Assembly: GCF_018977255.1 (NCBI RefSeq)
Contig: NW_024704743.1
Coordinates: 12,278,001 to 12,342,000, forward strand
Reading direction: 5' to 3'
DNA: 64,000 nucleotides
Source: Callorhinchus milii
Taxonomy: Eukaryota
The position numbers and the translations under genes are program-made. Below the pieces are notes generated by a model. It was not told the origin of the DNA and did no database searches. It was given only the letters and a program-made list of their open reading frames with translations. Shown here piece by piece: positions 1 to 50,029 of the stretch (positions within the stretch are counted from its first letter, which is position 1; every line of letters begins with the position of its first letter).

Positions 1-99
1 TTATTAAGATAGACGTGATTTTTTTTTATACATGTGTGCATAATTAAAGGTTTGTTTTGATTAAAACATCCTGAGACTCTGACCTGTTGGTATTGCTGA

Positions 100-870
100 A
101 TCCGAACCTATTCTGAGTGGTTGCAAACAGCCTATACGTGTCGAGCCTAAACGGATGACTTAACTAAGTGGGTTGCGGAATATTGGAAAGGGTTTCCCCT
201 TATGGAAGAACCATAAGAGAAAATCCTTAGTCCATAAGCAGTATTGCCAACAGATTTGCGAGGGGAGAAAAAAACAGAAACCTCTAATCCAAGTTTGACC
301 CCCGCCTGGACACCAAAAAGATGGTGTGCACAATATTGGCAATAGCCGTGCAGACCTACTCGCTCGTTCTGCATGCTACTTGAACGAGCCACCACAGGCT
401 GCCAAGGTATCAGTGACATGGGCGGTAAACTGTGATTTTACTTCTAACCCTGAGTAAAAGTTAGCGACATTCCTGGAGTCAGGGCAAATGGAGAAACTTC
501 CATTCTGGGCCAGAGGCAAAAAGGTTCAAGTGAAGGTGTCCATGTTTTACTGGCAAAGGAAGACTTTAAACCAACTTATTCATTATGATGACACATGAGG
601 ACCTAGTAGTCTCCAAAATGGAGTAAAAGGGACCAAGGAAATTCTAAGGGAATACTGGTGGCCCAATATCAAAAGGGAGGATAAAACTACATGGTGGGTT
701 GCATGCAAAATTGTGGAATTCCTAAAACGATAAAAATCCTCATTTCCAGAGGTAAACAGATAACAGTTTCGTTGACCAGGTCAAATAAGTTCAAGTTTAT
801 CAAACCATTCGAATGTTGGGGAAATAATGGCATGCAAGACAAGCCCTTTCTCCGGGTTCAGATATTGAGG
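100..870 (+). mobile_element. Degraded endogenous retrovirus pol fragment (RNase H + integrase N-terminus), foamy/spuma-like
   Basis: Manual translation across frameshifts and stops: VVANSLYV (from 117), KSLVHKQY, GHQKDGVHNIGNSRADLLA (308-363; retroviral RNase H C-terminal motif), GVKGTKEILREYWWPNIK (~620-675; integrase Zn-finger region), KPFLRVQI (841-864). Confidence 0.7.
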
Positions 871-1122
871 GATGCGAGAATGCAGGAGCCATTCAAAAAC
901 TGGACTGTATAAACACCTGGCGGTGACAGTCAAATGCAGTTGTCAAATGTTCAATGGGATCGTCTGGAAATGGTATTCTAAATTCTGGGATTGACCTAAT
1001 GATTATCATCAAAATTGAGTTATAATGAGTGGCTCTGTTATACATAAGAATATGTTTTTTATAGTAATAACTGGCATAAGTCTTTAAAAACATGATAATG
1101 TGTGTACGTTTCTGTCTTCTAG

Positions 1123-1217
1123 CTGAACTTGAAGTGCATGCGGTTTTCAGACAGACAGACAGAGATCAGCAACAGGCATCCATAAAAAATAATACGACAG
1201 AACAGAAAGTTTTGTGA
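1123..1217 (+). CDS. Candidate terminal coding exon of an unidentified upstream gene (xELEVHAVFRQTDRDQQQASIKNNTTEQKVL*)
   Basis: Pyrimidine-rich acceptor tttctgtcttctAG (AG 1121-1122), open phase-1 frame to TGA 1215-1217, followed by AT-rich UTR-like sequence. Product not recognised. Confidence 0.4.
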
Positions 1218-1344
1218 CAGATATTTTGTTGGACTCTTGAATTCTTTCCACCTATAGATTGATAAAAAAAGATGTTATTTTCTGAATATATTGATTATCG
1301 AGAGGAGGAAATGTCATGGTTACCCTATTTTTGCAATCCTTAGT

Positions 1345-1540
1345 AATCATAGAATTATACAGCACAGAAGGAGGCCATTCAGCCCATCGTGTTTGTGCCG
1401 GCTTTTTGAAAAGAGCTATCCAAATCAATCCCACTCCCCCGCGCTCTCCCCATAGCCCTGCAAACTTGTCCTCCCCAAATAATTATCTACTTCTCTCTTA
1501 AAAGTTGTTATCGAATCGGCTTCCACCGCCCTTTCAGGCA
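1345..1540 (-). mobile_element. CR1 LINE 3' end fragment
   Basis: atcatagaattatacagcacagaaggaggccattc... is the reverse complement of the CR1 3' terminus seen at ~10040-10090 and ~33340-33385. Confidence 0.75.
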
Positions 1541-1565
1541 GACAGAGTAATGAGTAAATAATATA

Positions 1566-2206
1566 CAGTAGAAACCTGGTTTGCAGTCACCTCAGTATTC
1601 CAGCCACCTCACAATTGTGGGCCCATATTCAGTCACTTTCATTGTCTATATTAAAAGATAGTCTGTCTGCTTCAGAAAAATGGGCACCTCACTATTCAGG
1701 ACAATGATCATTGATTGCAGCCACTACAAGCGCCCTCCTCCAGTACAAACACAATACAAACACCCCTCTCCGCTACTAACCTGTACACAGCGCGCTAAGC
1801 CTCAGGCCACTTGCACTGTTTGCTCGACGCTGCTACTGTGGGCGGAATGGGTTCCAGTCGTGCATGCGCGGTGCGTGGAGTGTTGGGATCGTGGAAGCAG
1901 AGCGAGCGGAAAATCAACTTCACCCAGTGCCTAGCACCTAGCCTGAGCTCCTGTGGAGGAGTTTCTACCAGGGACACTGAGGAACAGGACCCCTAGGAGA
2001 AGGAACAGGAAGAGCTACTGACAACATCAAAGACCTCTCTCACTTATGCTGATGCATTGAGTTTATTGGTATAAGTGAAGGATTTTTGTCTTGATCATGG
2101 ACTCAATGTGTGGCAGACTTTGGCTGATGCTGAGGGTCAGCTGCACGCCAAGGCAGTGGAGGTTAAATCAGCAGCCAGGCACACAACACTGGACTATTTC
2201 TTCTAG
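1566..2206 (+). mobile_element. Tigger/pogo-type DNA transposon relic (left TIR-like end plus transposase C-terminal fragment)
   Basis: TA|CAGTAGAAACC start; decayed frame with an acidic stretch (DTEEQDP*EKEQEEL) ending AARHTTLDYFF* (stop 2204-2206), matching the C-terminal QxxLxxFF PIP-box of pogo/Tigger transposases. Right TIR not found. Confidence 0.55.
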
Positions 2207-3063
2207 AAATTAACATTTTGTGTGATTTTAACTTCTCATGTAAACTTTGAATAATGAAACCTAAGATTTGTTTAAATGTGACAATACCTTTATTTTAGTG
2301 AGATTGCAAAGTATAGTTGTTGAATGTTCATCCAATATAATTTTAAAGTTCACTTTGGAGTTATCTGGAAATACCAGTCTGAGTGTCTAATTTTGACTCG
2401 GTTGAAGCCACCTTTAGCAGAGAATCACTCTGACAGGGTAAGGAGAGAGCAGAGACCACTTAGTATGAAAGCTTTACTAAAATTCACAAGTACCACGAGA
2501 AGAGAGAACTGTAGCAATAGCACAAGGAGAAGTTAATGTTTTAATTATTTTGCCTATTTGCAATGTTGTTGAAACTTTGTTGTTAAAACGGCTGTTGTGA
2601 ATGACTGCCATTCCTGCGGCATGTGGGTGACTTTGTTTCCCACACTACATTGCTGTGCTGCCGCCTCTCCTTCATCTTTCTACACTGATAGTGCAGACTG
2701 CTATAGAAATGAATGAGTGAATTGTTCACTATATTCTTTTAAAAAAATACACACAAGTGTAAGTGTTAGGGAATAGAAGAGATTTAGAAGGATGGAGGCT
2801 TGTGTGAAGTATAAACACTGGTATGGCCAGTTCAGCTAAATGACCTGTTCCTGTGCTGTAATTCTATGTATTTGCTTAAATGTAACAAGCTATAGGTTGT
2901 ACTGCGGAAATCTGCATTGTGCTTTCCTTGTGTACACAGTATAACGTTTATCCAGAATCAATGTTGCAAACATTTGGAGCTCTGTGTATATTGTATTTCT
3001 AACAGGGTTAAGTGTGTAAAGAATGTATTCAAAGCGCTATTTACTACTTACTGTGCCACATTC

Positions 3064-3069
3064 AATAAA
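3064..3069 (+). terminator. Candidate polyadenylation signal (AATAAA)
   Basis: AATAAA at the end of a long U-rich tract, followed by T/GT-rich sequence (ctactttttctggtgggg...cttgtgggtg). Confidence 0.4.
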
Positions 3070-3239
3070 AACTACTTTTTCTGGTGGGGAAATGTACTTG
3101 TGGGTGACGGAGTCGTAGCACATCTATCCATCAAACTGCTGCTATGTGTGTGCACATTATGGGTGTTCTTGCTGATAGTTTTACAGAGTAGACTTTAAGG
3201 AAAAATGAAGCTGTTCTCACTAATTGGAGGCAGCACAGA

Positions 3240-3470
3240 ACAACAACAAAATTACATTTATAGTGCGCCTTTCACGTCGGGAGGACGTCCCAAAGCGCTG
3301 AACAGTCAGGTGTCGGGGCCCAAGCATGGGGGAGAGGTGGTGTAGGGGTGAGGGAAGGCAGAGAGGGAGACCAAAGGCACGGTTGAAGAGAAGGGTCTTG
3401 ACACTGGCCTTGAAGGAGGCAAGGGAGGAAGCGAGGCGAAGGGACCGTGGGGTGGAGTTCCAACCCATCA
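3240..3470 (-). mobile_element. L2 LINE 3' end fragment
   Basis: Minus frame WNSTPRSLRLASSLASFKASVKTLLFNRAF plus the conserved tail ending in (GTT)n. Confidence 0.8.
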
Positions 3471-4099
3471 GGTCTGTGGTGTTTATTTTAGTGACTTTAG
3501 ACTCCTGGCACCCTCCCCCCTTAAAATAAGTTGCAAAAGAGCCATATATTTGAAGTCACAGAATGAAAGGAAAATCAGACAATCATCTGTGGGTACTTTT
3601 ATTTGCCTTTGAACAGAGAACTAAAGATTATGCTTAGAGGGTGGATTCATGCTTTTGCTGCCGTAATCCAAAAAAACGTGGAGGTGAGCATAGGCACAAG
3701 TTCCTAGCCAGCAGTACCGTCTAACTTAGCAAATATATTGTCCAGTTACCAAAAACAAACCTCTTAAAATCTTGTCTTACTTTTCCCACCATAGTTTCTT
3801 CCCTCTGCTCCCAAAAGGCTTTCATTCCATGGGTGCTGACTATTGCTTTTCCCAAGTGGCCACAGATAGTGACTATGAGCTCATCTGTGATATCAGGCGT
3901 GGGTGGGATCACAGCCGAATGCCCAATTCTGTCCTTGTTGTAACATACAAGCAAGCACACTTCTACAATACTATACACAATACATGTTTACATTTTCATA
4001 ACGCCTTTCACGTCAGGAGGATGTCCCTGCTCTCAAGCGCTCTGGGAATCTATCCTGCATGAGGGACGCTATATAAATGCAAATTGTTGTTCTCCCAAG

Positions 4100-4350
4100 G
4101 TGCTGGACAATCTAAGCTGTTGGTTGCGGGAAAGCACCATCTTTCAAGCAGTGCTCATCAATGGGAATAATCACCAACTGGCTGATTTTCTTGTCTGCCT
4201 TAGCTCAGGGATACTGCGGCCAATTTTAGTACTAGAATTGCCCTGTACCAAGTTAGCCTATCTCAGTACAAACTGTGATCAAGCCTAGAATCTTCCAGGC
4301 CTGTTTGTTGTTTCACACAAGGCAATGGCTTACCAACTGAACTGTCAAAT
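4100..4350 (-). mobile_element. Old tRNA-derived SINE fragment (second family)
   Basis: Minus strand begins with an A-box-like gttcagttggtaagc and degenerate B-box; a probable 3' part of the same family lies at ~51630-51785. Confidence 0.4.
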
Positions 4351-4779
4351 GGAGGGTATTTTTTGTGGGAAAGAGGGGATTCCCAAGTCAATATCATTGT
4401 TCTAAATGAACAATATAGGTTTATTGTTCCAAACAGCAATGTCTATTTCCCCTAAAACTATTACTTTCTGAGAAGCTTACGAAAAAAAACTTCAGTTTTA
4501 AACTTATTTGAATATTGTGAATGCAAAACTAAAACCCATATTATTCATTGTAATTCTTCTTCACTAAATAGACAGACTATTGTTTTCATTCTGGTATATA
4601 CTTGTCACTTCCCATTTCTTTCCACATTGTTGCTGAGTAGTAGGGGAACTGTTCTCATCACTGACTCATGTGTTATTTCACTGAAAAATAGAACGACAAA
4701 TTGTCGTATTACTGACACATTGCACAAAACTAACCTTGAGGAAAATAACTGAATAGGCCAGTTCCAAACGAGTTTATTC

Positions 4780-5290
4780 AAACAACAACAACAACAAATT
4801 ACATTTGTATAGTCCCTTTCACATCAGGAGGACATCCCAAGTTGGACAGTCAGGGATCTACACCTGAGCTGGTGGTTGGGATTAGGAGGGATGGAGGGAG
4901 GGGAGAGTAGGTGTAGGATGGTGACCAAAGGCACAGTTGAAGAGGAGGGTCTTGAGACGGGTCTTGAAAGAGACAAGGGAGGGGGCGAGGCGGTGGGACT
5001 GTGGGATGGAGATCCAGAGGGTGGTGGCAGAGAGGCTGAAGGCTCAACCGCCAAGCAGGGAGTTTGCATAGTCAAACCTGATTTAATGAATGATGAGGGT
5101 CTCGGTGGCCTGCAGTGAAAGACAGTGCCGGAGATGGGCAATGTTGCGGAGGTGGGGACAGGAAAAGCGGGACATGGCACAGATGTGGGGGATGAAGAAC
5201 GGTTGAGCGTCGAACAGGACGCTGAGGTTCTGTATTGGCTCTGTGAGGTATAAAGTGCATCCATGAAGGTGGATGCTGTCAGCACCTGAG
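4780..5290 (-). mobile_element. L2 LINE 3' fragment (internally deleted)
   Basis: L2 ORF2 C-terminal motifs and (GTT)n tail on the minus strand. Confidence 0.75.
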
Positions 5291-11829: not shown

Positions 11830-13185
11830 ACAGCAACAACAAGATTGCATTGATAGTGCGCCTTTCATGTCGGGAGGACGTTCCAAGGCGCTGGACAGTT
11901 GGGTCGGGACCCGAGCAGGGGGGAAATGGTCAGGATGAGAGGAAGGAAGGAAGGGAGGGAGCGAGGAGGTGTTAGAGAGTTGAGAGGGGAGGTGAAAGCT
12001 CGGTTGAAGAGAAAGGTCTTGAGACCGGCCTTGAAGGAGGAAAGGGAGGAAGCAAGGCAAAGGCACTGGGGGATGGAGTTCCAGAGCCGAGGGGCTGGGA
12101 GGCTGAAAGCCCAGCCTCCGATGGTAGGGTGGTTAGGGCGGGGGATGTGGAGCAGACCGGAGCCAGAGGAACGGAGGGTACGGGCAGGTAAGTAGGGGGA
12201 TAGTAGGTCGGAGAGGTAGGAGGGAGCAAGGCCGTGAATGGCCTTGTAGGTGAGGTTGAGGATCTTGAATTCAATCCTCTGGGGGATGGGGAGCCAGTGG
12301 AGGCGAGCGAGGGTGGGAGTGATGTGGTCCCGAAGACTGGTGCGGGACAGTACACGAGCTGCAGAGTTCTGAATGACCTGCAGCTTGTGGAGGGAGGTGC
12401 CGGGAAGGCCGACGAGGAGAGAGTTCCCGTAGTCCAGCCTTGAGGTGATAAAGGCGTGGACCGGTGTTTCAGCCGCGTGAGGGGTGAGGTAGTGCCGTAG
12501 TCTGGCGATATTCCGGAGGTGGTGGAGGGCAGTGCCAGTTGTGGCGCGGATATGGGGGAGAAAGGACAGCTCAGGGTCGAACAGAACACCAAGGTTCCTG
12601 ACTGGCTTTGAGAGGTGGAGAGTGCAGCCTTGGATGCTGATGGTGTCGGCGCCTGAGGTGTGGAGGCGCTGACGTGAGCCAATCAGGAGGGCCTCAGTTT
12701 TGTGCACGTTGAGCTGAAGAAAGTTGTCTCTCGTCCAGGACTCAATGTCGGACAGTCAGGCTGTCAGGACATCGGTGGTCATGGAGTTGAGGGTAGAAGA
12801 GGAAAGGTAGAGTTGGGTGTCATCTGCATACATGTGGAAGTTAACTCCATGTCTGCGGATGATGTCACCGAGGGGGAGCATATAGAGGGTGAAGAGGAGG
12901 GGACCGAGGACAGAGCCCTGAGGGACAGTTCGGGGGCTGGAGGAAAAGCCGTTAGCGGAGACAAAATGAAGACGGTGGGAGAGGTACGACCTAAACCACT
13001 CAAGGACAGGGCCTTGAAGGTTTAGGTGGGAGGACAAGCGGTGGAGGAGGATAGAGTGGTCGACCGTATCGAATGCGGCCAATAGGTCGAGGAGGACGTG
13101 GAGGCAGAGGGAGCCCTGTTCGCAGATGGTCAAGATGTCATTATTGACCTTGACCAGTGCGGTTTCCGTGCTATGGGCGGTTGAA
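11830..13185 (-). mobile_element. Relatively young L2 LINE, 3' ~1.35 kb (RT C-half + tail)
   Basis: [69 protein letters not shown] in ORFs 12756-13286 and 11865-12707. Confidence 0.93.
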
Positions 13186-13199
13186 GTGAGGTCCTGTAG

Positions 13200-14410
13200 A
13201 ATAGTGATTAGAGCACTCGCCTGACAAGCTTTAAACCAGTAAGGGGGTGGAAAACAAAACATAAGGCCAGGAGAGGATGAGAGCAACAGTTAGAATTACA
13301 AGTCGTGATAAAGATAACATAAATACTACAGGAAAGAAAAAGGTAATAAGAAGTTATTCCAAAAGTTTAACAAGTCAAAAAGTGTGAGAAGAACATCGTC
13401 AGGGCAAATAGGCATGTTAGGGACAGTTACCCAAATAAGAGTTATGTATACAAATGCACGTAGCATAAGAAATAAAACAAATGAGTTAGAAGCACACATT
13501 CAGCTTAAAAGGTATGATGTAGTAGCCATTACAGAGACCTGGTTACAAGCTGGACAGGACTGGGAGCTAAATATTCCAGGTTATAAGATCTTTAGAAAAG
13601 ACAGGGACATTGGGAAAGGAGGAGGAGTAGCAATATTGATAAAAGACACTATTACAGCAGTGGAAAGGAAAGATTTCAATAAAGGCAATCAGGTCGTGGA
13701 AATACTGTAGGTAGAATTAAGGAACAGTAAAGTGGATAAGACTCTGTTCGGGGTAGTCTACAGACCTCCAGAGAGTTGTGATGTAGTAGGGAAATGCATA
13801 AATATGGAGATCAGGGAAGCATGTAGCAAAGGCTTAGTGGTTAAAATGGGAAATTTTAATTTTCACATAGACTGGGAGAAGCAGGACACCTCAAGTAGTG
13901 AAGGCAACAAATTTCTAGAATGTATTCAGCACAGTTTTTTGGAACAATATGTTTTAGAACCAACAAAAGAACAAGCCATATCGGATTTGCTGACGAGTAA
14001 TGAACCAGAACTAGTTAACAATCTGACAGTAAGGGAACATCTTGCAAATAGTGATAATAATATGATTGAATTTGACATTGGATTTGAGAGGGAGAAGGGA
14101 GAGTCCCAAACCAAGGTTTTAAATTTAGGTAAGGCAAACTTTGATGGGATGATAAATAAATTGATCACAGTAAACTGCACTGAACTGTTAGTGGGTAAAC
14201 CTGCAGATGAACAATGGGAAATAGTCAAAAAAGTATTTGATACAATACAGACTAAGGACATATCCCTAAAATGCAAAATTCAAGGTCCAATCGTGTAGTT
14301 AAGCAACCATGGTAGACAAAAGAGGTTAGAGAACGGAAAATAAGGAAATGGCTGACTTGTTAAATAAATACTTTGCTACCGCTTTAACAGTAGAGGATGA
14401 GAACAAAATA
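13200..14410 (+). mobile_element. CR1 LINE ORF2 N-terminal (APE endonuclease) fragment
   Basis: YTNARSIRNK, YDVVAITETWL, GVVYRPP, MGNFNF, LANSDNNMIEF; internal stop codons. Confidence 0.9.
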
Positions 14411-20589: not shown

Positions 20590-21945
20590 AATTACCACCC
20601 CATTTCAAACCTTCCTTTTCTTTCCAAGGTCATGCAATGAGTTATTGCTTCCCAGCTTTTCTCTTTCCTCTCCCAGCATTCCTTGCATGAACCCCTCCAA
20701 TCTGGGTTTTGTGCTGCTCACAGCACAGAGACAGACCTGGTCAAAGTGACAAATGACATTCTGTCCACCTGTGACCACAGTTCTCTCTGTCTCCTTGTCC
20801 TTTTCAACCTCTCAGCCGCTTTCGATACCGTCGACCACTCTATTCTTCTCCACCACCTCTCCTCTCACCTCCACCTCAACAGTTCTGTCCTTGCTGGTTC
20901 CAATCCTACGTCCCTTCCAATCCCATCGTCTGCACTTCGTGTTCACTAATGGCTTCTCCTCCAGCTCCCGCACTGTCACGTGTGGCATCCCTCAGGGCTC
21001 TGTACCCTCCTCTGCAATCTATACATGTTCCTGCTCAGTGATGTCATCCGTAAGCAAGGGGTCAACTTCTACGTGTATGTGGATGACACCCAATTCTACT
21101 TCTCCGCCTCCATCCTCAACTACAGGACCACTGCTGTCCTCATAGACTGCCTGTCAGACATCAAGTCCTGGATGAGAGCTAAGTTTCTCCACTTTAATGT
21201 CAACAAGATACTTCACCTCACCGAGCCAATCCAAAACTTCATTGCCCTTTTCGACCCTCAGCTTTCCTTCAAACCCCATGTTCGTGCTGTGACCTGTTCT
21301 GCCTTTCCCCATCTCCACAACATTGCCTGCCTTCACCACTGCCTCTCACCACAGGCTGCTGAGACACTGATCCATGCTTTCATCACGTCCCAGCTTGACT
21401 ACGCCAACTGCCTGCTCACTGGACTTCCCACCTCTTCACTTCTCAAGCTTCAGATTATTCAGAACTTTGTAGCTCATGTCCTCTCCTGCACCAGGCTCCG
21501 CAAACCTATCATCCCGGTTCTTCACAGGCTCCTCATCCCTCAGAGAATGGAGTACAAAACACGTGTTCTCACCTTCAAAGTCCTCCATGGTCTTGCTCTC
21601 CCCTACCTCTCCGACCTCATAACCCCACATCAGCCTGTGCACTCCCGCCGCTTGTCGGACACCGACCTGCTTCAGGTCGACGCACTTCTCCTCAGCTTCT
21701 CTGCCCCCACACTCTGGAACTCTATCCCGTAATCCCGTTACCCCCTCTCTAACCTCCTTCAAGTTCTGTCTAAAGACCCTCCCTCTTCAACCGTGCCTTC
21801 AGCCACCCTCCCAACTCCACCCCATGTTCTCCACCCCTCCTGACCCCAACTCCTAGCTCAGGTCAAAAAAAACCCTGACTGCCCAGGCCCTGGAACATCT
21901 TTCCGACGTGAAGGGTGCTATGCAAGTATAATTTATTGTTGTTGT
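20590..21945 (+). mobile_element. L2 LINE RT-to-3' fragment
   Basis: [61 protein letters not shown], tail. Confidence 0.9.
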
Positions 21946-22028
21946 CTCAATGATGTGATAATGCAAGTATTATTGTTATTTTATTATTATTACTATCTTT
22001 CCAAAGAAAAGAGGCAGGAACTGAGAAT

Positions 22029-22330
22029 GATAATAATAATAATCCTTGCATTTGATATAGTGGCATATCACATCTTCGAGACATCTCAAAGCGCTTCACA
22101 GAATATACTGGAAAGTGAATTGACTGTATATTTTGTGGGCGAAATACGGCAGCCAATTGCGCACAACAATGTCCTACAAATATTCGCGGATTGAGTGACC
22201 AAATTATTACCCCAGAAAGCGATTACCCAATCGATTAAACAGAAATAAAGGTAAACAAAGGGGTAAGGAGTAAGGAAACTTGCCTAACGTTTCACCCTGC
22301 CCGGGAATTGAACCAGGCTCTCTCGCTCGG
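22029..22330 (-). mobile_element. tRNA-Ala-headed SINE
   Basis: (AAT)n ccttgcatttgatatag tail and family body in reverse. Confidence 0.85.
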
Positions 22331-22699
22331 TATAGACAAAAGGAAAGCACTTACATGTTTTTATTGGGCCTTTTCACATTGAACCATCTCGAATTTCGAG
22401 TGATTTGGAGTTGACTAACTGGCCACATCAGAGGCTGGAGGAACCGGGGATATAAACGACAGCTAATATTAATGATGGGGGAGGGGTGTGTGTCTGGCTG
22501 AGACTGATACACAACGTTAGCAATGTGACTCAGATTGCTACCTTTATGAGGTTTAATTAATGACGTTTCTGTCTGTTTGTTAAGCAAGTAGCTGAGCAGT
22601 GTAAACTGTAACCTGACTCAAACCTGCACAAGTCAACTAACTCAGCAAGCAACGTGTGCCGAAAACAGAAAACCAAAAGTTATCGTCCTTAGGGTTGAC

Positions 22700-25600
22700 A
22701 TCCTGAGGGCTGATGCTGTCCCGCTTATCTCTCGCTCCCGGTCTCTGCGTGCGTGTTTTGGCTGCCGCCCCAACCCGAGCCTCCCCCTCCACTCTAAATG
22801 TCTCTCCTCCCACCTCCCTCTATCCGCTATTCCCACTCTGTCCTTCTCTCCCACCGCCGCCCCCTCCTTCTTTCTCCTCGACCCCATCACCACTTCCCTC
22901 TGCTCCAGTCTGGGCATCCTCCGCCGGGCCCAGCGTGGCTCCCAGCACTGGCTGTCCCAGAGCAGCAACCCCAAGTGTCCCATCATTCACACCCTCCGCA
23001 CAAACAGCCTCCTTAAGGCAAACCCAACTTCCCCCTTCCTCATACGTACCCTCCCCAACTCTCCACTCCCACCACACTCCACAGCCATCTCTCCTGTATA
23101 CTCTAAAATCCTCTCCGCATCACTATCTCCTCCCTTTCCTCCCACCATCAAACCCACTCGCATTTCCCTTCAAAATGTCCGTTCCCTCTCTAACAAAGCC
23201 CTCACCATTCATGACCTCATCCTGGATGAGCACCTCGACATTCTTGGGCTTCCCCAATGAACCCCGACCCCCAAGTTGAAGCCTCCCATCCAGGCTACTC
23301 CTTCAACCACACCCCCCGTCCAAACCAACGTTGTGGTGGGGTGGCCCTCATCTCCAAAGCCTCCCTTGGTCTTTCCCCCTACTCCTCTGGCTGCTTCCCC
23401 TCCTATGAGCACCTCACCCACAACCGTGGCCATGCCCTCGACCTCTTCATCACCCACGGCCTTGACATTTCTGACCTTAGCATCGTGGACAAGGCCATCT
23501 CGGACTACTTCCTCATCTCCTTCTCCTCTCACATCCCTCTCTCCTCCACCAAGCCCTCAACCATACTCTACCGCCCGTGGAAAAGGCTACCCCCTGAGAC
23601 CCTCACAAGGGCTCTCACATCCTCCAATATCCTATCCCTCTGGCCTTCCACCCGCAGAGATCCTGAAGCAGCCGTCCAGCTGCTCCATGATCGCCTCTCC
23701 TCCACCTTCAACTTTCTCGTCCCCCTGAAATCCAGGACCATCTCCAAACCCACCCGATCCCCCGGTATAACAATCATCTCCGCTCCCTAAAAACCCAAAC
23801 TTGGCTACTCGAGCGCAGATAGCAGATAACTGGCCTGACAGTTCATCACCAACAGTGGCTTGAGCATCTCTACAGTTCTTTGACGCACGCAAAAACGGCC
23901 TTCTACTCCAACATCATCTTGGAGGCAAAAAACAATCCCAAAATCCTTTTTTCCACCACCCACTACCTCCTCTGTGCTCCCCCACAGGCCTCCTCAATCT
24001 TCACATCTAATGCCAAGTGCGAGGAGGTCATGGACTTCTTTTCAACCAAAATACATAATATCCGCCAGGCAGCCTCATCCTCCTGCCTCTTGTCATCCAC
24101 CATCACCCCCTCACCATCCCCCTCACCCTCCCCATCATCAGTTCCTATCACGATCCCCATTCTACATTCCTTCCTCCCCATCACTCCTTCCTCCCTCTCA
24201 CCCATCATCACTTCAATGAAATCCACCACCTGCTGCCTTGACCCCCTCCCCACCAACTTGATGGTCACCCAGTTCCCCCTCCTCTGCCCACTACTGGCTG
24301 ACGTCATCAACCAGTCCCTCTCCTCTGGATCAGTCCCTGCCCCCCTCAAAACTACTGTCATCAAACCCTCCTCAAAAAATCTTCCCTAGATCCCTCAGAC
24401 CCCAGCCACCAACGCCCTATTTCTAACCTGCCCTTCCTCGCAAACGTTCTAGAACGCATTGTTGCCAATCAACTCCGCGCACACCTCTCCTCCCACTCCC
24501 TCTTCGAACGCCTCCAGTTCGGTTTCCGCCCACAGTACAGAGACTGCGCTTGTGAAAGTCTCAAATGATATCTTCTCTATCTGTGACCAGGGCTTCCTCT
24601 GCCTCCTTGTCCTCCTGGACCTCTCCGATCACAGTCGATCACGCCATCCTCCTCCATGGTCTTTCCTCCATCATCCACCTCAGTGGGACCGCATTCGCCT
24701 GGTTCGAATCCTACCTCACAAACCGTCAGCAGTACATCTGCACAAACGGCTTCTCCTCCCGCTCTCACCCAGTTACCTGCGGGGTACCCCAAGGATCCAT
24801 CCTTGGGCCCCTCCTCTTCCTAATCTATAGGCTCCCTCTTGGGGATGTCATCCACAGACATGGGGTACACTTCCACAAGTATGCGGACGACATCCAACTC
24901 TATTTTTCTACCTCACTTTGCGACCCCCAGTCCCCTGATATTCTGTCAGCCTGCCTGTCAGACATCAGGAGCTGGATGAGCGCGAATTTTCTTCCGCTGA
25001 ACATTAACAAGTCAGAAGCCATACTCTTTGGCTCTCGTCAAGGTCTAAAATCACACGGTTCTCACCTCCTCCACCTACCCGACCTCCCTCTAAAACTCTC
25101 CGAACCCATACGCAACCTAGGCGTCAGGTTTGACCCCTATTTATCCTTCCTCCCCCACATCCGGTCCCTCACCAGCACTGCTTTCTTCCACCTCTGACGC
25201 ATCGCCCGTCTCCGCCAATACCTCACTCCAAAAGCCACTGAGACCCTGATCCATGCCTTTGTCACCACTCGGCTGGACTATTCAAATTCCCTCCTCACCG
25301 GTCTCCCATCCACTACCATTCATAAAATCCAGGTCATCCAAAACTCTGCCGCCCACATTCTTACCCGCACTGAACTCCGCTCCCCGATTACCCCAGTCCT
25401 TGTCAGACTGCACTGGCTGCCTGTCCCAGAAAGGATCGAGTTCAAGATCCTCACTCTTGTCTTCAAATCCTTCCACTCCTCTGCACCCCCCTAACTCTCT
25501 GACCTCCTCTCTCCTCACAACAGTGCCCGTTGCCTTCGCTCTACCAGGTCTGGCCTTACCTTGTCCCCTGAATCCTCCGTGGCATCATCGGCAGCCGTGC

Positions 25601-25830
25601 CTTCAGCCACTATGCCCCGAGGCTCTGGAACTCCCATCCTCATTCCCTTCGCCTCGCCCCCTCTCTTCCTATTTTCAGGTCTCGGCTGAAAACCTTTCTT
25701 TTCGACTGCGCCTTTGGTTACCTTCCTCCCTCTCTCCCTGGCTCGGGCCCGGGGTCTGTTACTGTGAAGCGCTCTGAGATGCCGTCCGGCATGGAGAACG
25801 CTATATAAATCCAAGTTGTTGTTGTTGTTG
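22700..25830 (+). mobile_element. Long L2 LINE copy (APE endonuclease + RT + tail), frameshifted
   Basis: FSLQNVRSLSNKALTIHDLI (~23162), GGVALI, HNRGHALDL, ISDYFLI, CCLDPLPT, GVPQGSILGPLLF, YADDIQLY, (GTT)n tail at ~25814-25829. Confidence 0.92.
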
Positions 25831-28714: not shown

Positions 28715-29472
28715 TGTCAAGCTTACCCTATTGCAGTCCGTAGTAAATAATATATATATAACTATATAATATTATTTAAAGGAAATGGGTAGGCCTGCTC
28801 ATTTAAATAGATTTAGTTGCAGAAGCTGCTTGCAAAAGACTTAGCAAACAACATACATGAGGTGTACCTGAGTTGAAACAATATATTGGACCTGGACTGT
28901 TTTTTTGGACAGTCAGTTAACAAGCAGCCTGCAGAGTAAAAGAACACGTGGACGCTAGTGCGGGAAAAAGTTCTCGCCTTCGCATCATACGATGGGCGAC
29001 GCTACAGGACTACTGTACTGTCGGGTTGGTTTAAATCTATTTTACTAATGTAGTATTGTGCTGCAAGTTGATATAGTTATCTGTGACAGTTATGTTTGAT
29101 CTCATTGTGGTTTACCTTAAATTGCTGTGACCCTTATATGCAAGGTAGCCCAGGGTTGCTAGGTCTTAATAAAGAGCTGTTTTTTCTACCTACTGTATTC
29201 TCGAGTCTGTAATATTCTAAAACAGGAAAAGGAGTAAACACTTTGGAGAGTAGCTGTCGACACCGGAGTTCTGCTAGTGCGAGCAGACTCTGATTAGACA
29301 GTCCAGTTACAGGCATTGGAGTTAACTTGGAATACCGGTTGGTCTGGGTGCGTGACTCTGACTCGATTGAGTCACCTTCGAAACACTGACAGTGTTTGGA
29401 GAGAGCAGAGACCAATTAGTACAAAAGCGTTAATAAAATGTGCACATACATCAAGGAGTGAGAACCGTTGCA
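28715..29472 (+). mobile_element. Solo LTR (758 bp) with 4-bp TSD CTAC
   Basis: ctac|TGTCAAG...GTTGCA|ctac; TG..CA termini; AATAAA at ~29168 and 29432; splits an L2 3' fragment that resumes at 29473. Confidence 0.8.
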
Positions 29473-29879
29473 CTACCCTTCAACCCTCTTGATACCAATC
29501 CCCAGCTCAGGTCAAAACCCTTAACTGTCCAGCGCCTTGGAACGTTGCTATACAAATGTAATTTGTTGCTATCGTGCCTTCTCTCTGAAAGAGCTAGCAG
29601 TTCAGTTCAGTCCTACTCTCCTACCCTTGCCTCATACCATTTCAAATCTTTGTCTATTTCCTTTTTTAAAGCTTTTACAGATTCTGCTTCAACCAATGAT
29701 TTTGGTAGGACATTGTCATTGATACATGCCTCAATGACCCAATGTGCAAGAAAAATATTAATACAATTTTTCTTTCTCATATATTGGGTAACTGGTTGCA
29801 CAGCCTTAGTTTTGATTTTGATGATGATGTTAAATTGATACCCTTTAGTTACTGACTAATTGGTGCTTATTCCCCATTA

Positions 29880-36245: not shown

Positions 36246-36317
36246 ATTTGCTCTGGGACACTGCCCCGCATGAAGGGTGCTATATAAATGCAAGTTGTTG
36301 TTGTATTTGTACATTTA

Positions 36318-36865
36318 CAACATTTATGTGCCCCCTCTTGGTGACATCATCCATAGACATGGGGTCAACTTCCACGTGTATGTGGATGACACCCAACTCC
36401 ACTTCTCCGCCTCTACCCTTGACTCCAGGATCACTGCTGTCCTCACAGACTGCCTGTCGGACATCAAGTGCTGGATGAGAGCTAACTTTCTCCACTTGAA
36501 TGTCAACAAGAGAGAGGCCCTCCTGCTTGGCTCCCGTCAGCTCCTGCCTACCTTTGGCGCTGACAGCATCACCCTTCATGGATGTACTCTACACCCAATG
36601 GAGCCAATATGGAACCTCGGCATCCTGTTTGACCCGCAACTTCACCCCCCACATCCGTGCCATGACCCGCTCCACATTTCTCCACCACCGCAACATTGCA
36701 GGCCGCTGAGACCCTCATCCGCGTATTCATTACATCGAGGCTCGACTACACAAACTCCCTGCTTGTCGGCCTCCCCAACTCCTCCCTCCACAGGTTGCAG
36801 ATCATCCAGAACTTTGTAGCCTGTGACCTCTCCCGCACCAGCCTCTGCGATCCTATCACCCCCTG
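36318..36865 (+). mobile_element. L2 RT fragment
   Basis: PLGDIIHRHGVNFHVYVDDTQL, SRLDYTNSLL. Confidence 0.88.
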
Positions 36866-36959
36866 TTATGCATATTAGGGGACGAGTGACCTAATTCAAC
36901 CTTTATTCATCAGGATGAGTGAAGTGCAGGCAGGAAAGGGCAATGCATTCAAGTGTTCA

Positions 36960-37285
36960 ATGCTGGGGCTGTGTTGCATTGTCTGAGGTGCCGTCCTTCA
37001 GCTGAGATATTAAATCGAGGCTCCTTCTGCCTGTTCAGACGGATGTTAAAGATCCCACGGCACTATTCAAAAGGAGAAGGGAGTTTTGCCTGGTGTCCTG
37101 ACTGACCATACCCCAAATATAAAATTGGTCACTCATTCACAGCTGTTTGTAAGGCATTGCTGTGCGTAAATTCGCAAATTGGCTGCAGTGTTTGCTTACA
37201 AAACTCACAGTCACTACACTTTACAGTATATCCTCTGAAGGTGCTTTGGGTCATCCTCCTGACATGAAATGTGCTGTAGCAATTG
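36960..37285 (+). mobile_element. Deu-domain SINE
   Basis: gcattgtctgaggtgccgtccttcagctgagatattaaatcgagg...aaagatcccacggcactatt Deu core, L2-type tail. Confidence 0.7.
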
Positions 37286-37679
37286 TAAAGGTAGTTATGA
37301 TTAACAACAGCTTTCATTTATATGGCACCCTTCACAAGGGAAAGAGTCTCGGACAATTAAGAACAGCATATATCCCCATTAATTTGTAATGAGAAGGACG
37401 TCTCAACAGGTCTTTACCAGATTTTTTTGTGTATTTTGTAGGCAAACATGGCAGTCAATTTGTGCAAATGGAAGCCTGTAGCTCAGTGGTTAGAGCACTC
37501 GTCTTGCAAGTGGGTTCTATTCCCGGCAGGGTGAAATGTTGGGCAAGTTTCCTTACTCCACACGCCTGCTTACCTAGCAGTAAGTAGGAACCCAGTTATT
37601 AGTCGATTGGCGGATCACTTTTCCGGGTATAATAATCCCTAAAAAAAAGAGTAATAATTTGGTCACTCAATCCACGACT

Positions 37680-38515
37680 GTCTGTCGGATATCAAGTCCT
37701 GGATGAGAGCTAACTTTCTTCAGTTAAACAAGATCGAGGGTCTCCTGATCGGCTCCCGTCAACGCCTCCTCACCTCAGGCGTTGTCAGCATCACCATCCA
37801 TGGTTGCACACTCCTCTTGTTTGACCCTCAACTATCCTTTCTACTCCACATCTGCGCCATGACCCGCTCTGCCTTCCCCCACCGCTTGGCTCCGACACTG
37901 TCTCACACCGCAGGCCGCTGAAACCCTCATACATGCTTTCATTATATCGAGGCTCGACTATGCAAACTCATTGCTTGTCGGCCTCCCGAACTCCTCCCTC
38001 CACAGGCTGCAGATCATCCAGAACTCAGTCCGTGTCCTCTCCTGCACTAGGTTCCGCGACCCTATCAACCCCATCCTCGCCCAACTCCACTGGCTTCCCA
38101 TCACACAGAGGATACAGTTCAAGATCCTGGTCTTCACCTTCAAAGCTGTCCACGGTCTTACTCCTCCCTACCTCTGTGACCTCTTAACCACCACCATCCT
38201 GCTCGCTCCCTCTGCTCAGCGGGCTCCGGCCTGCTTCATGTCCCCTGCCTCACTTGCTCCACCATTGGCAGGTGGGCCTTCTGCCACTCTGCCCCCACCC
38301 TCTGGAACTCCATTCCGCGATCCTCTGCCTCGCTCCCTCCCTTGTCACCTTCAAGACCCTCCTCTTCGATTGTGCTTTTGATCTCCCTGCTTTCCCCTCC
38401 TGCCCTCCACCCTCCCCGACCCCGACCCCCAGCTCGGGTCCGTAACTCTGTTTGTCCAGCGCCTTGGGATGTCTTCCCGATGTGAAAGGCACTTTACAAA
38501 TTTAGTTTTGTTGTT
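37680..38515 (+). mobile_element. L2 3' fragment (preceded by a SINE head at 37470-37680)
   Basis: WMRANFLQLNK, LHWLPITQRIQFKIL, tail. Confidence 0.88.
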
Positions 38516-41644: not shown

Positions 41645-42292
41645 TAGAAACATGAGCAGGCCATTCAGCCCTTCGATCCTGTTCCGTCATTTAATTAGAT
41701 CATGGCTGATCTGTACCTCAACTAATCCATTCAATTCCAATTTCCTGCTTTCTTCCCGTATCCCTTAATATCCTGACCCACCAAAGATCTATCAACCTCA
41801 CTCTTGAAGGTGTGGATGGATCCAGCATCCATGGCCTTTTGGGGGAGAGAATTCCAGATTTCTACCACCCTTTGAGTGAAAAAATGCTTCCTGATTTCAC
41901 TCTTAAATAGTATGGTTCTAATTTTAAGACTATTCCCCCTTGTTTTGGATTCCCGAACCAGAGGAAATAGATTCTCTGTATCTACCCTATCAAATCCCTT
42001 TATCATCTTAAATACCTCAATCAAATCACCCCTCAACCTTCTAAGCTCAAAGGAATACAATCCAAGTTTACGCAGCCTTTCCTTGTAACTTAATCCTTTT
42101 AGCCCTGGTAACATTTTAGTGAACCTGTGCTGCACCCCCTCCAGAACCAATATATCTTTCCTGAGGTGTGGTGCCCAAACCTGAATGCAGTTTCCAGATG
42201 GGGTCTGACTAACGCTCTATACAGCTGAAGCATCATTTCTTCCCCTTTGTATTTCAGGCCCCTTGAGATAAAGGCCAACATTCCATTCACCT
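41645..42292 (-). mobile_element. CR1 3' fragment
   Basis: LYRALVRPHLE, LEGVQHRFTKMLPGL, FFTQRVVEIWNSLP; close relative of 9100-9580. Confidence 0.92.
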
Positions 42293-45907: not shown

Positions 45908-47035
45908 AGAGAGAGAGAGAGAGAGGAGGAAGGGGGGAGAGAGAGAGAGGAGGAGAGAGAGAGAGAGAGGAGGAAGGGGAGAGAGAGAGAGAGAGAGGAG
46001 GAAGGGGAGAGAGAGAGAGGGGAGGAAGGGGAGAGAGAGGGAGAGCAGGAAGGGGAGAGAGGGGGAGAGCAGGAAGGGGAGAGAGAGAGAGAGAGGAGGA
46101 AGGGGAGAGAGAGAGGGGGAGAGGAGGAAGGGGAAAAGAGAGAGGGGGAGAGGGGGAAGGGGGGGAGAGAGAGGTGAGAGCAGGAAGGGGGGGAGAGAGA
46201 GAGGGGGAGAGGAGGAAGGGGAGAGAGAGGGGGAGAGGAGGAAGGGGAGAGAGGGGGAGAGGAGGAAGGAGAGAGAGAGGGGGAGAGGAGGAAGGGGAGC
46301 GAGAGAGAGAGAGAAGGGTAGAGAGAGAGGAGAAGGGGGGGAGAGAGAGAGAGGAGGAAGGGGGAGAGGAGGAAGGGGGGGAGAGAGAGAGTGGGAGAGG
46401 AGGAAGGGGGGGGGAGAGAGGGGGAGAGGAGGAAAGGGGGGAAGGGGGGGAGAGAGAGGGGAGAGCAGGAAGGGTGGGAGAGAGAGAGGGGGAGAGGAGG
46501 AAGGGGAGAGAGAGAAGGGGAGAGAGAGAGAGAGGAGGAAGGGGAGAGAGAGAGAGAAGGAAGGGGAGAGAGAGAGAGAGAGAGAGAGAGAGGAGGAAGG
46601 AGAGAGAGAGAGAGAGGAGGAAAGGGGGAAAGAGAGAGGGAGAGCAGGAAGGGGGGGAGAGAGAGAGAGGGGGAGAGGAGGAAGGGTAGAAAGAGGGGGA
46701 GAGGAGGAAGGGTGGGGAGAGAGAGTGGGAGAGGAGGAAGGGGGGAGAGAGAGAGGGGGAGAGGAGGAAGGGGGGAGAGAGAGGGGAGAGCAGGAAGGGT
46801 GGGAGAGAGAGAAGGGGAGAGGAGGAAGGGGAGAGAGAGGGGGAGAGGAGGAAGGGGAGAGAGAGAGAGAGAGGAGAAGGGGGGGAGAGAGAAGGGAGAG
46901 AAGGAAGGGGAGAGAGAGAGAGGGGGGGAGAGAAGGAAGGGGAGAGAGAGAGAGAGGAGGAAGGGGAAAGAGAGAGAGAGGAGGAAGGGGGAGAGAGAAG
47001 GAGAGTGAGGAGGAAGGGGAGAGGGAGGGAGGAAT
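45908..47035. repeat. ~1.13-kb polypurine (GA) minisatellite
   Basis: Variants of GAGGAGGAAGGGG(GA)n; pyrimidines almost absent. Confidence 0.95.
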
Positions 47036-47244
47036 GAAATAAATGAGAGGAATCAGTATGTGTGTGTGTGTGTGAGAGAAGCAGATCCGAGTCTTGGAAC
47101 AGTTTTTGATGTATAACTGCCCTCATCCTTCAGCCCTCAACCCCAACAACAACATGGACTACTGTAACTGTGTGTGGGGGGAGTGGCCGCGGAGCTGGTG
47201 CTCAGGGCTGAGCCAACAGTGCACAGTCTGAAGGACTGAGAAAC

Positions 47245-47280
<36 letters not shown>

Positions 47281-47537
47281 CACTGAACCCTCTGACCCCC
47301 CCCCCCCCCTTTATAACGAGGAGGAGGAGAGAGAGAGAGAGTGAGTGTGGGAGGGAGGGGGGAGGGAGGGGGGAGGGAGGTGTGGCGATGATTTGGGATG
47401 TTGTTTTCATCAGAAAGTGATTGACTGACCACAAGATTTCAGTGAGAAACGAGCGAGAGACAGAGCAAAGCCACGCAGCGAGAGAGAGAGAGAGAGAGGG
47501 GGGGGAGGTCGCCTGTCCATTACAGAGGCGCGGGTCT

Positions 47538-47616
47538 GTCTGTCTGTGTGTCTGTCTGTCTGTCTGTCTGTATCTGTCTGTCTGTGTGTCTCTCTGTCTG
47601 TCTGTCTGTGTGTCTG
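47538..47616. repeat. (TGTC)n microsatellite
   Basis: Direct reading. Confidence 0.9.
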
Positions 47617-47799
47617 TGGGGGTGGGGGAGACAGAGAGAAAACAATTCTTGTTCTCAATAACCTTACCTGACGATCAACTTCAAAGGTCTCTGACGGGGT
47701 TGGGTTGGGGGGAGAGAGAGGGAGAAGCAGGAACACCCCCACTGCCCCCACTCACCCTTTTTGGGGGACTTGTATTTGTGTGGATTCGCATTGGCACCG

Positions 47800-47883
47800 A
47801 TGGGCAGCACCACCGTGGATTGCGCTAAAAAGAAAGCAGGAATGAAGAGGAGCAAAAGACACGTCCTGCACCTCAATATCCCG
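47800..47883 (+). CDS. Candidate first coding exon of an unidentified gene (MGSTTVDCAKKKAGMKRSKRHVLHLNIP)
   Basis: ATGG at 47800, 28 codons of protein-like composition, donor CCG|GTAAGG at 47884, CpG-containing unique leader; no downstream exon identified in the window. Confidence 0.55.
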
Positions 47884-47907
47884 GTAAGGGGACCCGGGCA
47901 TGTTCTG

Positions 47908-49058
47908 GGAGGGGGGGAGAGGGGGGGAGAGGGGGGATGTATTTGGGGGATGCGGGAGAGGGGGAGTTGTGGGGGCGCGGGGGAGGGTGTGTGTGGGGAG
48001 ACGGGTGTGTGTGGGGGAGGGAGGGGTGGGGGGGAGAGGGTGTGTGTGTGGGGGGAGGGGTGTGGGGGGGGAGAGGGTGTGGGGGGGGAGAGGGGTGGGT
48101 GGGAAAGGGGTGTATGTGTGTGTGGGGTGGGGAGGGGTGGGAGAGGGGGGGGGGGAGAAGGGTGTGTGGGGGGGGGGGGGGGGGGGAGGAGGTGTGTGTG
48201 GGGTGGGAGGGGGGGGGGAGGAGGTGTGTGTGGGGTGGGGAGGGGTGGGGGGAGGAGGTGTGTGTGGGGTGGGGAGGGGTGGGGGGGGGGTGTGTGGGGG
48301 GGGGGGGGGGGGAGAAGGTGTGTGTGGGGTGGGGAGGGGTGGGGGGGGGGGAGAAGGTGTGTGTGGGGGGGTGGGGAGGGGTGGGGGGGAGGAGGTGTGT
48401 GTGGGGTGGGGAGGGGTGGGGGAGGAGGTGTGTGTGGGGTGGGGAGGGGTGGGGGGGAGGAGGTGTGTGTGGGGTGGGGAGGGGTGGGGGGAGGAGGTGT
48501 GTGTGGGGTGGGGAGGGGTGGGGGGGAGAGGTGTGTGTGGGGTGGGGAGGGGTGGGGGGGAGGAGGTGTGTGGGGGGGGGGGGTGGGGGGGAGGAGGTGT
48601 GTGTGGGGTGGGGAGGGGTGGGGGGAGGAGGTGTGTGTGGGGTGGGGAGGGGTGGGGGGGAGGAGGTGTGTGTGGGGTGGGGAGGGGTGGGGGGGAGGAG
48701 GTGTGTGTGGGGTGGGGAGGGGTGGGGGGAGGAGGTGTGTGTGGGGTGGGGAGGGGTGGGGGGGAGGAGGTGTGTGTGGGTGGGAGGGGTGGGGGGAGGA
48801 GGTGTGTGTGGGGTGGGAGGGGTGGGGGGAGGAGGTGTGTGTGGGTGGGGAGGGTGGGGGGGAGGAGGTGTGTGTGGGGTGGGGAGGGGTGGGGGGAGGA
48901 GGTGTGGGTGGGGTGGGGAGGGTGGGGGGAGGAGGTGTGTGTGGGTGGGGAGGGGTGGGGGGAGGAGGTGTGGGTGGGGAGGGGTGGGGGGGAGGAGGTG
49001 TGTGTGGGGTGGGGAGGGGTGGGGGGGAGGAGGTGTGTGTGGGGTGGGGAGGGGGGTG
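47908..49058. repeat. ~1.15-kb G-rich minisatellite (~33-bp unit)
   Basis: Tandem GGAGGAGGTGTGTGTGGGGTGGGGAGGGGTGGGG(G) units. Confidence 0.95.
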
Positions 49059-50029
49059 TGAGGATTTTATTTGTTTTGCAGTGGGGGGTGTTGCGGATTG
49101 CTGTGGTTTGGATTTGGATGTGTGTGTGCTGGGGTGGGTACAGGTATATGGGAGGGGGTGTTGGGTTGGGGGTACAGTTCCAGATTGCTGCTCGTGTAGC
49201 TTTCCTTTGCTTGTAAACAAGTTACCCCCACACACGCACATGCACATGCAATGTGGAGAGAGAGAGAGAGCTGTCATGCTGAGGCAGTACCTCTTATAAC
49301 AAGCAATAATCTTTGCAATTGATCTCTGCAAGCTTTGAAAATCCCTGTGTAGTTGGGATACATGGGAATCTCAGCTTGGTTTGGATACTCTTAAGCATGG
49401 TGATAGGTTTTCACACGTGTCAGACACTCGCTGACGCCCAGAATATATTTGCAAATAATATTCCTCACTTTTTCATGTCAGGAGGTCTTCATGTCAAAGC
49501 TCTTCACAGGATTTTATAGTAAATTGCAGTGTGTATTTTGTGGACAAATGCAGCAACCAGTTTGTGCACAGTAACGTACCCGCAAACAATGATGTTTGAA
49601 GTACTTGAGTTTTTCGGGGTGGGTGGATTCTCGGCCAGGACAGTGGGAGAAATCACCTCGACTTTTCTGGTAACACCATGGGATCTTTAATGTCCACCTG
49701 AACAGGCGAAGGCTGGCACCTCTGACAGTGCAACACTCCTCCCACCAGCACTGCATTAGAGTGTTTGTACTATGTATGCTGGTTTAAATATTAATAATGA
49801 TAATCATGGCATTTGATTTGGCACCTTATCATGCATTAAAACATCTTAAAGTCCCTCACAGTATTTCTAGTGCAGTGTAGTGACTGTGTATTTGCTCAAG
49901 AACGACTTGAGCGAGTATCTCAGGGTGGGAAATCGCCCAAAAAAATGTACTGTAAATGTAGCCAGGCTAGAGCTAAATGCAATTTCAAGGCTTTTGATTG
50001 TGAGAAAGGAATTGGTTATTCTAACACTG

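Follow-up and report, generated by a model that had tools for sequence, protein, structure and literature searches.

Near the 5′ edge of the window, a 64,000-nt stretch of the Callorhinchus milii genome, the + strand carries a broken retroviral pol segment followed by a polypurine tract (PPT) and an apparent long terminal repeat (LTR). We read this locus as a real foamy-like endogenous retrovirus (FLERV), belonging to the clade named Tu in jawed vertebrates (PMC6001957), of which a pol relic, the PPT and the 3′ LTR remain, and we put the probability of this reading, made from sequence comparison, at about 0.87. It draws directly on the homology and placement of the RNase H and integrase N-terminal parts, the PPT, a foamy-type LTR start, related copies that are 87–92% alike, and the stops and frame changes in the relic. 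The reverse transcriptase (RT), gag, PBS, 5′ LTR and TSD of the element fall outside the window, with RT upstream, and no RT piece of the element was found elsewhere in the window; the FLERV criterion used in PMC5512871 is clustering of RT with foamy viruses, and other FLERV traits, namely a tRNA-Lys PBS, a 4-nt TSD and a Gag free of Cys-His boxes, concern the 5′ half of a provirus.

The first-pass annotation had stitched pol peptides together from several frames, and frame translation of window 100–870 places every one of them in the order given on the + strand: VVANSLYV (117–140, frame 3), TKWV (163–174, frame 1), KGF (188–196, frame 2), KSLVHKQY (221–244, frame 2), GHQKDGVHNIGNSRADLLA (308–364, frame 2), GVKGTKEILREYWWPNIK (620–673, frame 2) and KPFLRVQI (841–864, frame 1). 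Frame 2 holds most of the pol peptides over 188–706 and has stops at 296, 455 and 596; no open reading frame of at least 150 amino acids occurs in the relic region. From about 92 to 706, the window is collinear with the RNase H and integrase zinc-binding domain of foamy-type Pol. Positions 92–385 correspond to the C-terminal half of an RNase H of foamy type; its reading frame changes between about 140 and 190 and is interrupted by the stop at 296, and the remnant may extend further 5′ of 92. The RNase H–integrase linker and integrase N-terminal extension (386–600) are placed by collinear spacing; this segment is poorly conserved, with little residue-level similarity, and contains the frame 2 stops at 455 and 596. 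A remnant of the integrase zinc-binding domain with the YWWPN motif follows at 601–706, the first Cys of its CxxC lying at 704–706. The pol relic at this locus encodes no working protein.

Generic searches were blind to the relic. No Pfam family was found in its six frames, a PDB sequence search gave no matches, a word-indexed homolog search returned none among 151 candidates, and Rfam had no match over window 1–5000; the sole whole-library phmmer match, P0001, is a repetitive bacterial surface protein and was discarded as spurious. We therefore assembled a dedicated reference panel. A YWWPN pattern search recovered, among 90 IMG/VR loci, eight genomes of foamy viruses whose Pol matched solved foamy structures. 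With two further searches for homologs and two scans of loci the set grew to 220 proteins, comprising foamy, amphibian, unnamed foamy-like, class I, class III, delta/lenti-type and Gypsy-type Pols. After 19 proteins with too short an RT had been dropped, the RT tree of the remaining 201 contained 30 foamy or foamy-like, 61 other retroviral and 110 Gypsy-type rows; L109 and L124 we take to be ‘WDSV-like’ and ‘snakehead-like’, respectively. Foamy queries served to recruit the panel, which includes near-duplicates among simian viruses. A metagenome scan with a foamy profile gave 126 pattern matches and a viral scan with P0017 gave nine, none of them confirmed.

Frameshift-aware alignment scored 85–120 against six of the seven foamy-type Pols tested, the seventh (P0094) scoring 40. 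Over window 1–706 the highest values came from P0088 (120), equine foamy Pol (101), L091 (95), a Pleurodeles protein (93) and P0135 (90). The null, made of 176 window tiles and 150 shuffles, had a maximum of 66; none of these 326 sequences reached the top foamy-type scores, for which fitted p values ranged from 2e-12 to 4e-7. Two Gypsy-type rows also scored significantly over 1–706 (P0019, 86; P0127, 71), mostly on account of the YWWP region they share with foamy Pols. As the YWWPN motif had been the first means of recruiting the foamy references, the RNase H part (100–390) was scored separately. Here 27 of 30 foamy or foamy-like Pols reached at least 55 (foamy-type median 72), as did none of the 61 other retroviruses (best 51) and none of the 110 Gypsy-type rows (best 47). 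The integrase N-terminus (540–706) reached at least 55 in 7 of 30 foamy-type and 10 of 110 Gypsy-type rows, the best other retrovirus scoring 40; it thus excludes other retroviruses without separating foamy from Gypsy. Since the YWWPN zinc-binding region is common to Gypsy elements, it is not diagnostic alone.

These scores bear on whether the relic could instead derive from an orthoretrovirus-type element, be it gamma/epsilon class I, snakehead-like or class III ERV-L/S. The GHQ...GNxxAD signature on which the first-pass annotation had leaned is less telling than was claimed, being common to gammaretrovirus-type Pols too: such Pols share PGHQK...GNxxAD, and one of them, L117, scores 53 (p = 9e-4). 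In Gypsy elements a single RNase H, ending in NxxADxLSR, lies directly before the integrase; this ending is present in 29 panel proteins, and the window has GHQ...GNSRADLLA instead. Class I and snakehead-like retroviruses, among other ERV classes, are reported from C. milii (PMC4422223), and the PPT border described below has gamma-type counterparts in L112 and L119. Against this stand the separation on RNase H, on which no non-foamy retrovirus reaches 55, and approximately unbiased (AU) tests that rejected grouping the relic with class I (p = 0.001), P0071 (p = 0.008) and L124 (p = 0.010, on the integrase block, as L124 has no RNase H block in the alignment). An orthoretroviral origin is largely refuted already and we consider it extremely unlikely.

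For placement we built a maximum-likelihood tree (LG+G4, no mixture model) of 27 references over 597 columns of RT, RNase H and integrase; the relic covers 99 of these columns, which alone carry its placement. It falls inside a nine-row set of foamy viruses, P0088 and P0089 at 100/99, as sister to P0088 at 85/70. With P0088 removed and RNase H alone used (63 columns), it still falls in the eight-row foamy/FLERV set at 100/99. In the best tree the relic lies with P0088 outside the mammal-type foamy clade, a placement inside that clade having an AU p of 0.23; grouping with P0135/P0094 was not rejected (p = 0.064). Besides class I, the rejected groupings include a class III ERV and P0019, a Gypsy element with dual RNase H (p = 0.028). 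Neither the best matches nor the tree position lie within Gypsy elements or non-spuma retroviruses, and the scores, nulls, tree and AU tests bear out the original proposal of a spuma-related pol relic in which RNase H precedes an integrase N-terminus.

The same data address a different source, namely an element outside the canonical retroviruses that bears two RNase H domains, such as a lokiretrovirus, an Odin-like element or a P0019-like Gypsy lineage. In such elements, too, an integrase of YWWP type follows a second RNase H that resembles the retroviral one; YWWP is frequent in Gypsy integrases, and the P0019 score of 86 over 1–706 is within the foamy range. Lokiretroviruses, marked by a Mononegavirales-like Env, and Odin elements were defined in PMC9040795, which reports lokiretroviruses in fishes; compared by description, Odin resembles the window element in lacking env, and the PPT–AA–TG border of the window is not foamy-type. 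On RNase H alone, however, P0019 scores only 47 against the foamy-type median of 72, and its grouping with the relic is rejected. Moreover, lokiretroviruses and Odin are described as sister to canonical retroviruses (PMC9040795), whereas the relic nests at 100/99 among foamy and amphibian FLERV rows of a panel that holds no lokiretrovirus or Odin reference sequence; the LTR start, TGTCATGG, also argues against such a source, which we judge very unlikely. As a separate observation, the 7,723-nt contig of P0019 encodes a Gypsy-type RT together with the second, retrovirus-like RNase H and sits among Gypsy rows, apparently as a dual-RNase-H lineage apart from retroviruses.

Related copies of the element are present in the same organism. 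We aligned Logan contigs from four public runs to window 1–4700 and found paralogous pieces, 87–92% alike, over 270–527, 316–581, 339–706, 707–1347, 734–1068 and 1063–1341; no second copy of 1–1300 exists within the window. Contig depth was not taken as copy number. The X9 paralog contigs have a depth of 143, yet 10 of their 30 bins are uncovered; this does not demonstrate transcription, and that X6 and X9 are RNA is a guess. Record 17 of X6 (128–340, depth 2) is identical to the window locus. Over 60–130, 11 X1 contigs align, more than over the rest of the pol relic, and two paralogs skip 172–315; this may reflect a short segment present in more copies, or a subfamily with a different rearrangement.

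The paralogs reveal a junction at 706/707, where about 600–710 nt are absent from the window copy. Record 19 of X6 has about 711 extra letters between window 706 and 707, and the alignment of X9 record 25 likewise starts at 707; X5 record 9 (423–828, no extra letters) crosses the junction in the same way as the window. In 11 of 14 foamy-type Pols (the landmark failed in three) the distance from the first zinc-finger Cys to the SH3 strand is 729–795 nt. Because a gap of about 710 nt fits an integrase core, we infer from the lengths of the extra paralog letters that the catalytic core was lost from the window copy. Positions 707–774, with KIVEFL in frame 2 and then PKTIKILISRGKQITVSL in frame 1, are probably the end of the integrase C-terminal SH3 domain. 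Their score of 24 against a PF18103-type SH3 profile is weak on its own, since 11 of 206 tiles score as high, and modest when restricted to the predicted position, where 4 of 1,232 100-nt tiles do so. KPFLRVQI, which had been taken for an integrase KPF motif, finds no support in that role: it lies 135 nt past the junction, beyond the apparently missing core, and since a paralog carries about 710 nt more at this point the resemblance is probably coincidental.

Between the SH3 remnant and the PPT lie about 525 nt (775–1299), which hold KPFLRVQI, have no assignment and are too short for env. No similarity to env or accessory genes was detected between pol and the PPT, the best score against 28 downstream open reading frames (Env, accessory and some pol) from 13 retrovirus loci being 39, at background level; nor were a foamy Env, internal promoter or tas/bet encountered between pol and the 3′ LTR at this locus. 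This absence may be a secondary loss. As the paralogs are collinear across the gap (707–1347), env was probably already absent when the copies multiplied, and by these lengths the family would be env-less.

The element continues beyond 870, where the first-pass annotation had ended it, into a PPT at 1300–1311 (GAGAGGAGGAAA, a 12-nt purine run), followed directly by TGTCATGG at the start of the putative 3′ LTR (1312 to about 2352). Among fetched foamy loci we noted, as an in-house observation rather than a published criterion, that 15 of 17 begin their LTR with TGT[CGT][AG]TGG (one with an N; L094 and L102 begin elsewhere), and the window start is identical over its first 8 nt to those of L103 and L106. 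Eleven purines followed by this pattern, which was written after the site had been seen, occur once in the window and in none of 100 shuffles. The LTR is taken to end in CA, with GTTCA and without the foamy CCAYRACA, and is about 840 nt long when the insertion is subtracted; its probable 3′ end is placed from paralog contigs, X1 record 5 departing from the window at 2354 and a near-identical flank contig beginning at 2363. TGACA at 2019, 2279 and 2431 was set aside as an LTR end, as paralog alignments reach 2325 and 2354. Comparison with foamy LTRs by blastn returned nothing beyond one 19-nt match (E = 0.38). The insertion, a later retroposon-type sequence of 198 nt at 1348–1545, is flanked by AGTAAT at 1342–1347 and 1546–1551 and has four matches elsewhere in the window; paralog alignments end at 1347.

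One could object that pol and the LTR-like sequence are adjacent without belonging to one element, and that the 3′ structure varies by copy such that no single env-less family exists. The Logan contigs are of short length, none of the listed ones reaches from pol across the entire LTR, and contigs over the LTR (1571–2355) far outnumber those over the internal part. Record 19 of X6, however, is a single contig running from 339 through the PPT to 1347, and X9 record 25 (707–1347) and X1 records 2 and 3 (734–1068 and 1063–1341) agree with it, and we consider this alternative quite unlikely. Among the X1 LTR contigs, 33–36 share differences at 1623 and 1676, and 17 at 2089.

Several further features were noted in and next to the LTR. 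A GC-rich patch at 1780–1920 has 59% GC and a CpG observed/expected ratio of 1.01, against 0.37 for the window, and is a candidate promoter region; TATA-like TATAAG lies downstream at 2070, within an imperfect 39-nt palindrome (2040–2078). An older repeat (2355–2519), 72% alike to 29316–29475, begins right at the LTR end and may be the sequence into which the provirus integrated.

The border between PPT and LTR distinguishes the window copy from described foamy elements. GGGTG is reported at this border for every foamy virus and for every fish FLERV in which the border is present, and is tied to one-ended integrase processing (PMC5210030, the only paper returned by a literature search on the LTR and PPT of shark foamy-like elements). 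The window copy departs from this, reading GGAAA/TG, nearer the gamma-type ...GGGGAA/TG of L112 and L119; GGG/TG is present in all five foamy loci printed, which were fetched by a pattern containing it. In a single decayed copy, decay and an ancestral border state are indistinguishable.

The locus resembles CmiFLERV of C. milii (PMC5512871) and ERV-Spuma.0-Sca of Scyliorhinus canicula, which has paired LTRs (PMC10699275), in that its pol is degenerate and foamy-like yet comes from outside the mammalian foamy viruses; neither report detected an env. Shark FLERVs have been described mostly from pol, with poorly supported relationships, and pol alone was detected for CmiFLERV (PMC5512871), to which, by the published descriptions, the window element adds a PPT and a 3′ LTR. 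The window family may be an already published shark family. The available parts of 10.1101/2020.12.18.423569 and PMC8227577 added nothing on sharks, and none of the titles returned by a literature search on env-less elements concerned shark foamy-like elements.

P0088, a Logan Gag-Pol with a foamy-type SH3_11 domain that is both the best scorer and the tree sister, shares with the window GHQKxGxHxxGN and the same two-residue-shorter loop, but has an intact 1,687-aa open reading frame and only about 25% identity over the aligned stretch. Its 10,956-nt contig holds Gag and Pol in that one frame; exogenous foamy viruses, by contrast, make Pol separately. The Pleurodeles waltl FLERVs P0089–P0091 (scores 81–93) have a loop of the same length, GHQRVGIHVAGN, and the AGVxxT...YWWP integrase motif; as a difference, PMC5512871 reports gag, env and accessory genes for salamander FLERVs. 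P0089 bears the UniRef name ‘Gypsy retrotransposon integrase-like’, yet groups with foamy viruses. Simian, equine, feline and bovine foamy viruses match the window in RNase H and integrase motifs, their order and spacing, and the LTR start, but identity to exogenous Spumaretrovirinae is at most 37% over the 99 columns; these viruses also have the GGG/TG border, env and tas/bet, which the window element is without, and LTRs of 1,061–1,760 nt, longer than that of the window. In the catshark Scyliorhinus torazame, the predicted protein P0121 (GCB66461.1) combines an RT/tether piece of foamy-like character with a PR/SET domain and falls in the foamy-like RT clade; it would be either a gene-prediction artefact or an exonised ERV.

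A history compatible with these features would begin with germ-line entry of a foamy-like virus. A descendant lineage, by then without env and the accessory genes, could have multiplied in the genome, by intracellular retrotransposition, which occurs in foamy virus, or by mobilization in trans. Env-less ERVs proliferate more easily (cited in 10.1101/2021.11.23.469661). Such amplification would have left several internal copies and more LTR copies, and the window copy would afterwards have lost the integrase core, decayed and received the retroposon within its LTR. If the locus still has an effect, it would be cis-regulatory, via the LTR.

A bolder proposal, which we think unlikely, is that a deep-branching env-less foamy-like lineage spread as an LTR retrotransposon in a cartilaginous-fish genome with PPT–AA–TG as its ancestral border. 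If so, its integrase would have clipped both DNA ends, as in orthoretroviruses, and one-ended processing with the GGGTG border would have arisen later in the foamy lineage; an orthoretrovirus-style border kept in many copies of an env-less family would offer a sequence test for the timing of foamy integration chemistry. Such a family would also exemplify a foamy-like element with the lifestyle of a retrotransposon. Both the atypical border and the apparent lack of env throughout the family are leads for a genome-wide look, and the PPT and LTR boundaries allow the family to be counted and dated across the genome. The suggestion that the relic bears on the deep origin of retroviruses holds only to a small extent, because foamy-like ERVs of sharks are already published (PMC5512871, PMC10699275); with FLERVs known from fish and sharks, the locus adds detail as one more foamy-like fossil.

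Elsewhere in the window, many decayed LINE-type reverse-transcriptase fragments, presumably of CR1/L2 type, occur at 11865–13289, 20950–25777, 36274–38381 and 41731–42216, and purine/GT-rich tandem arrays occupy 45908–49062.
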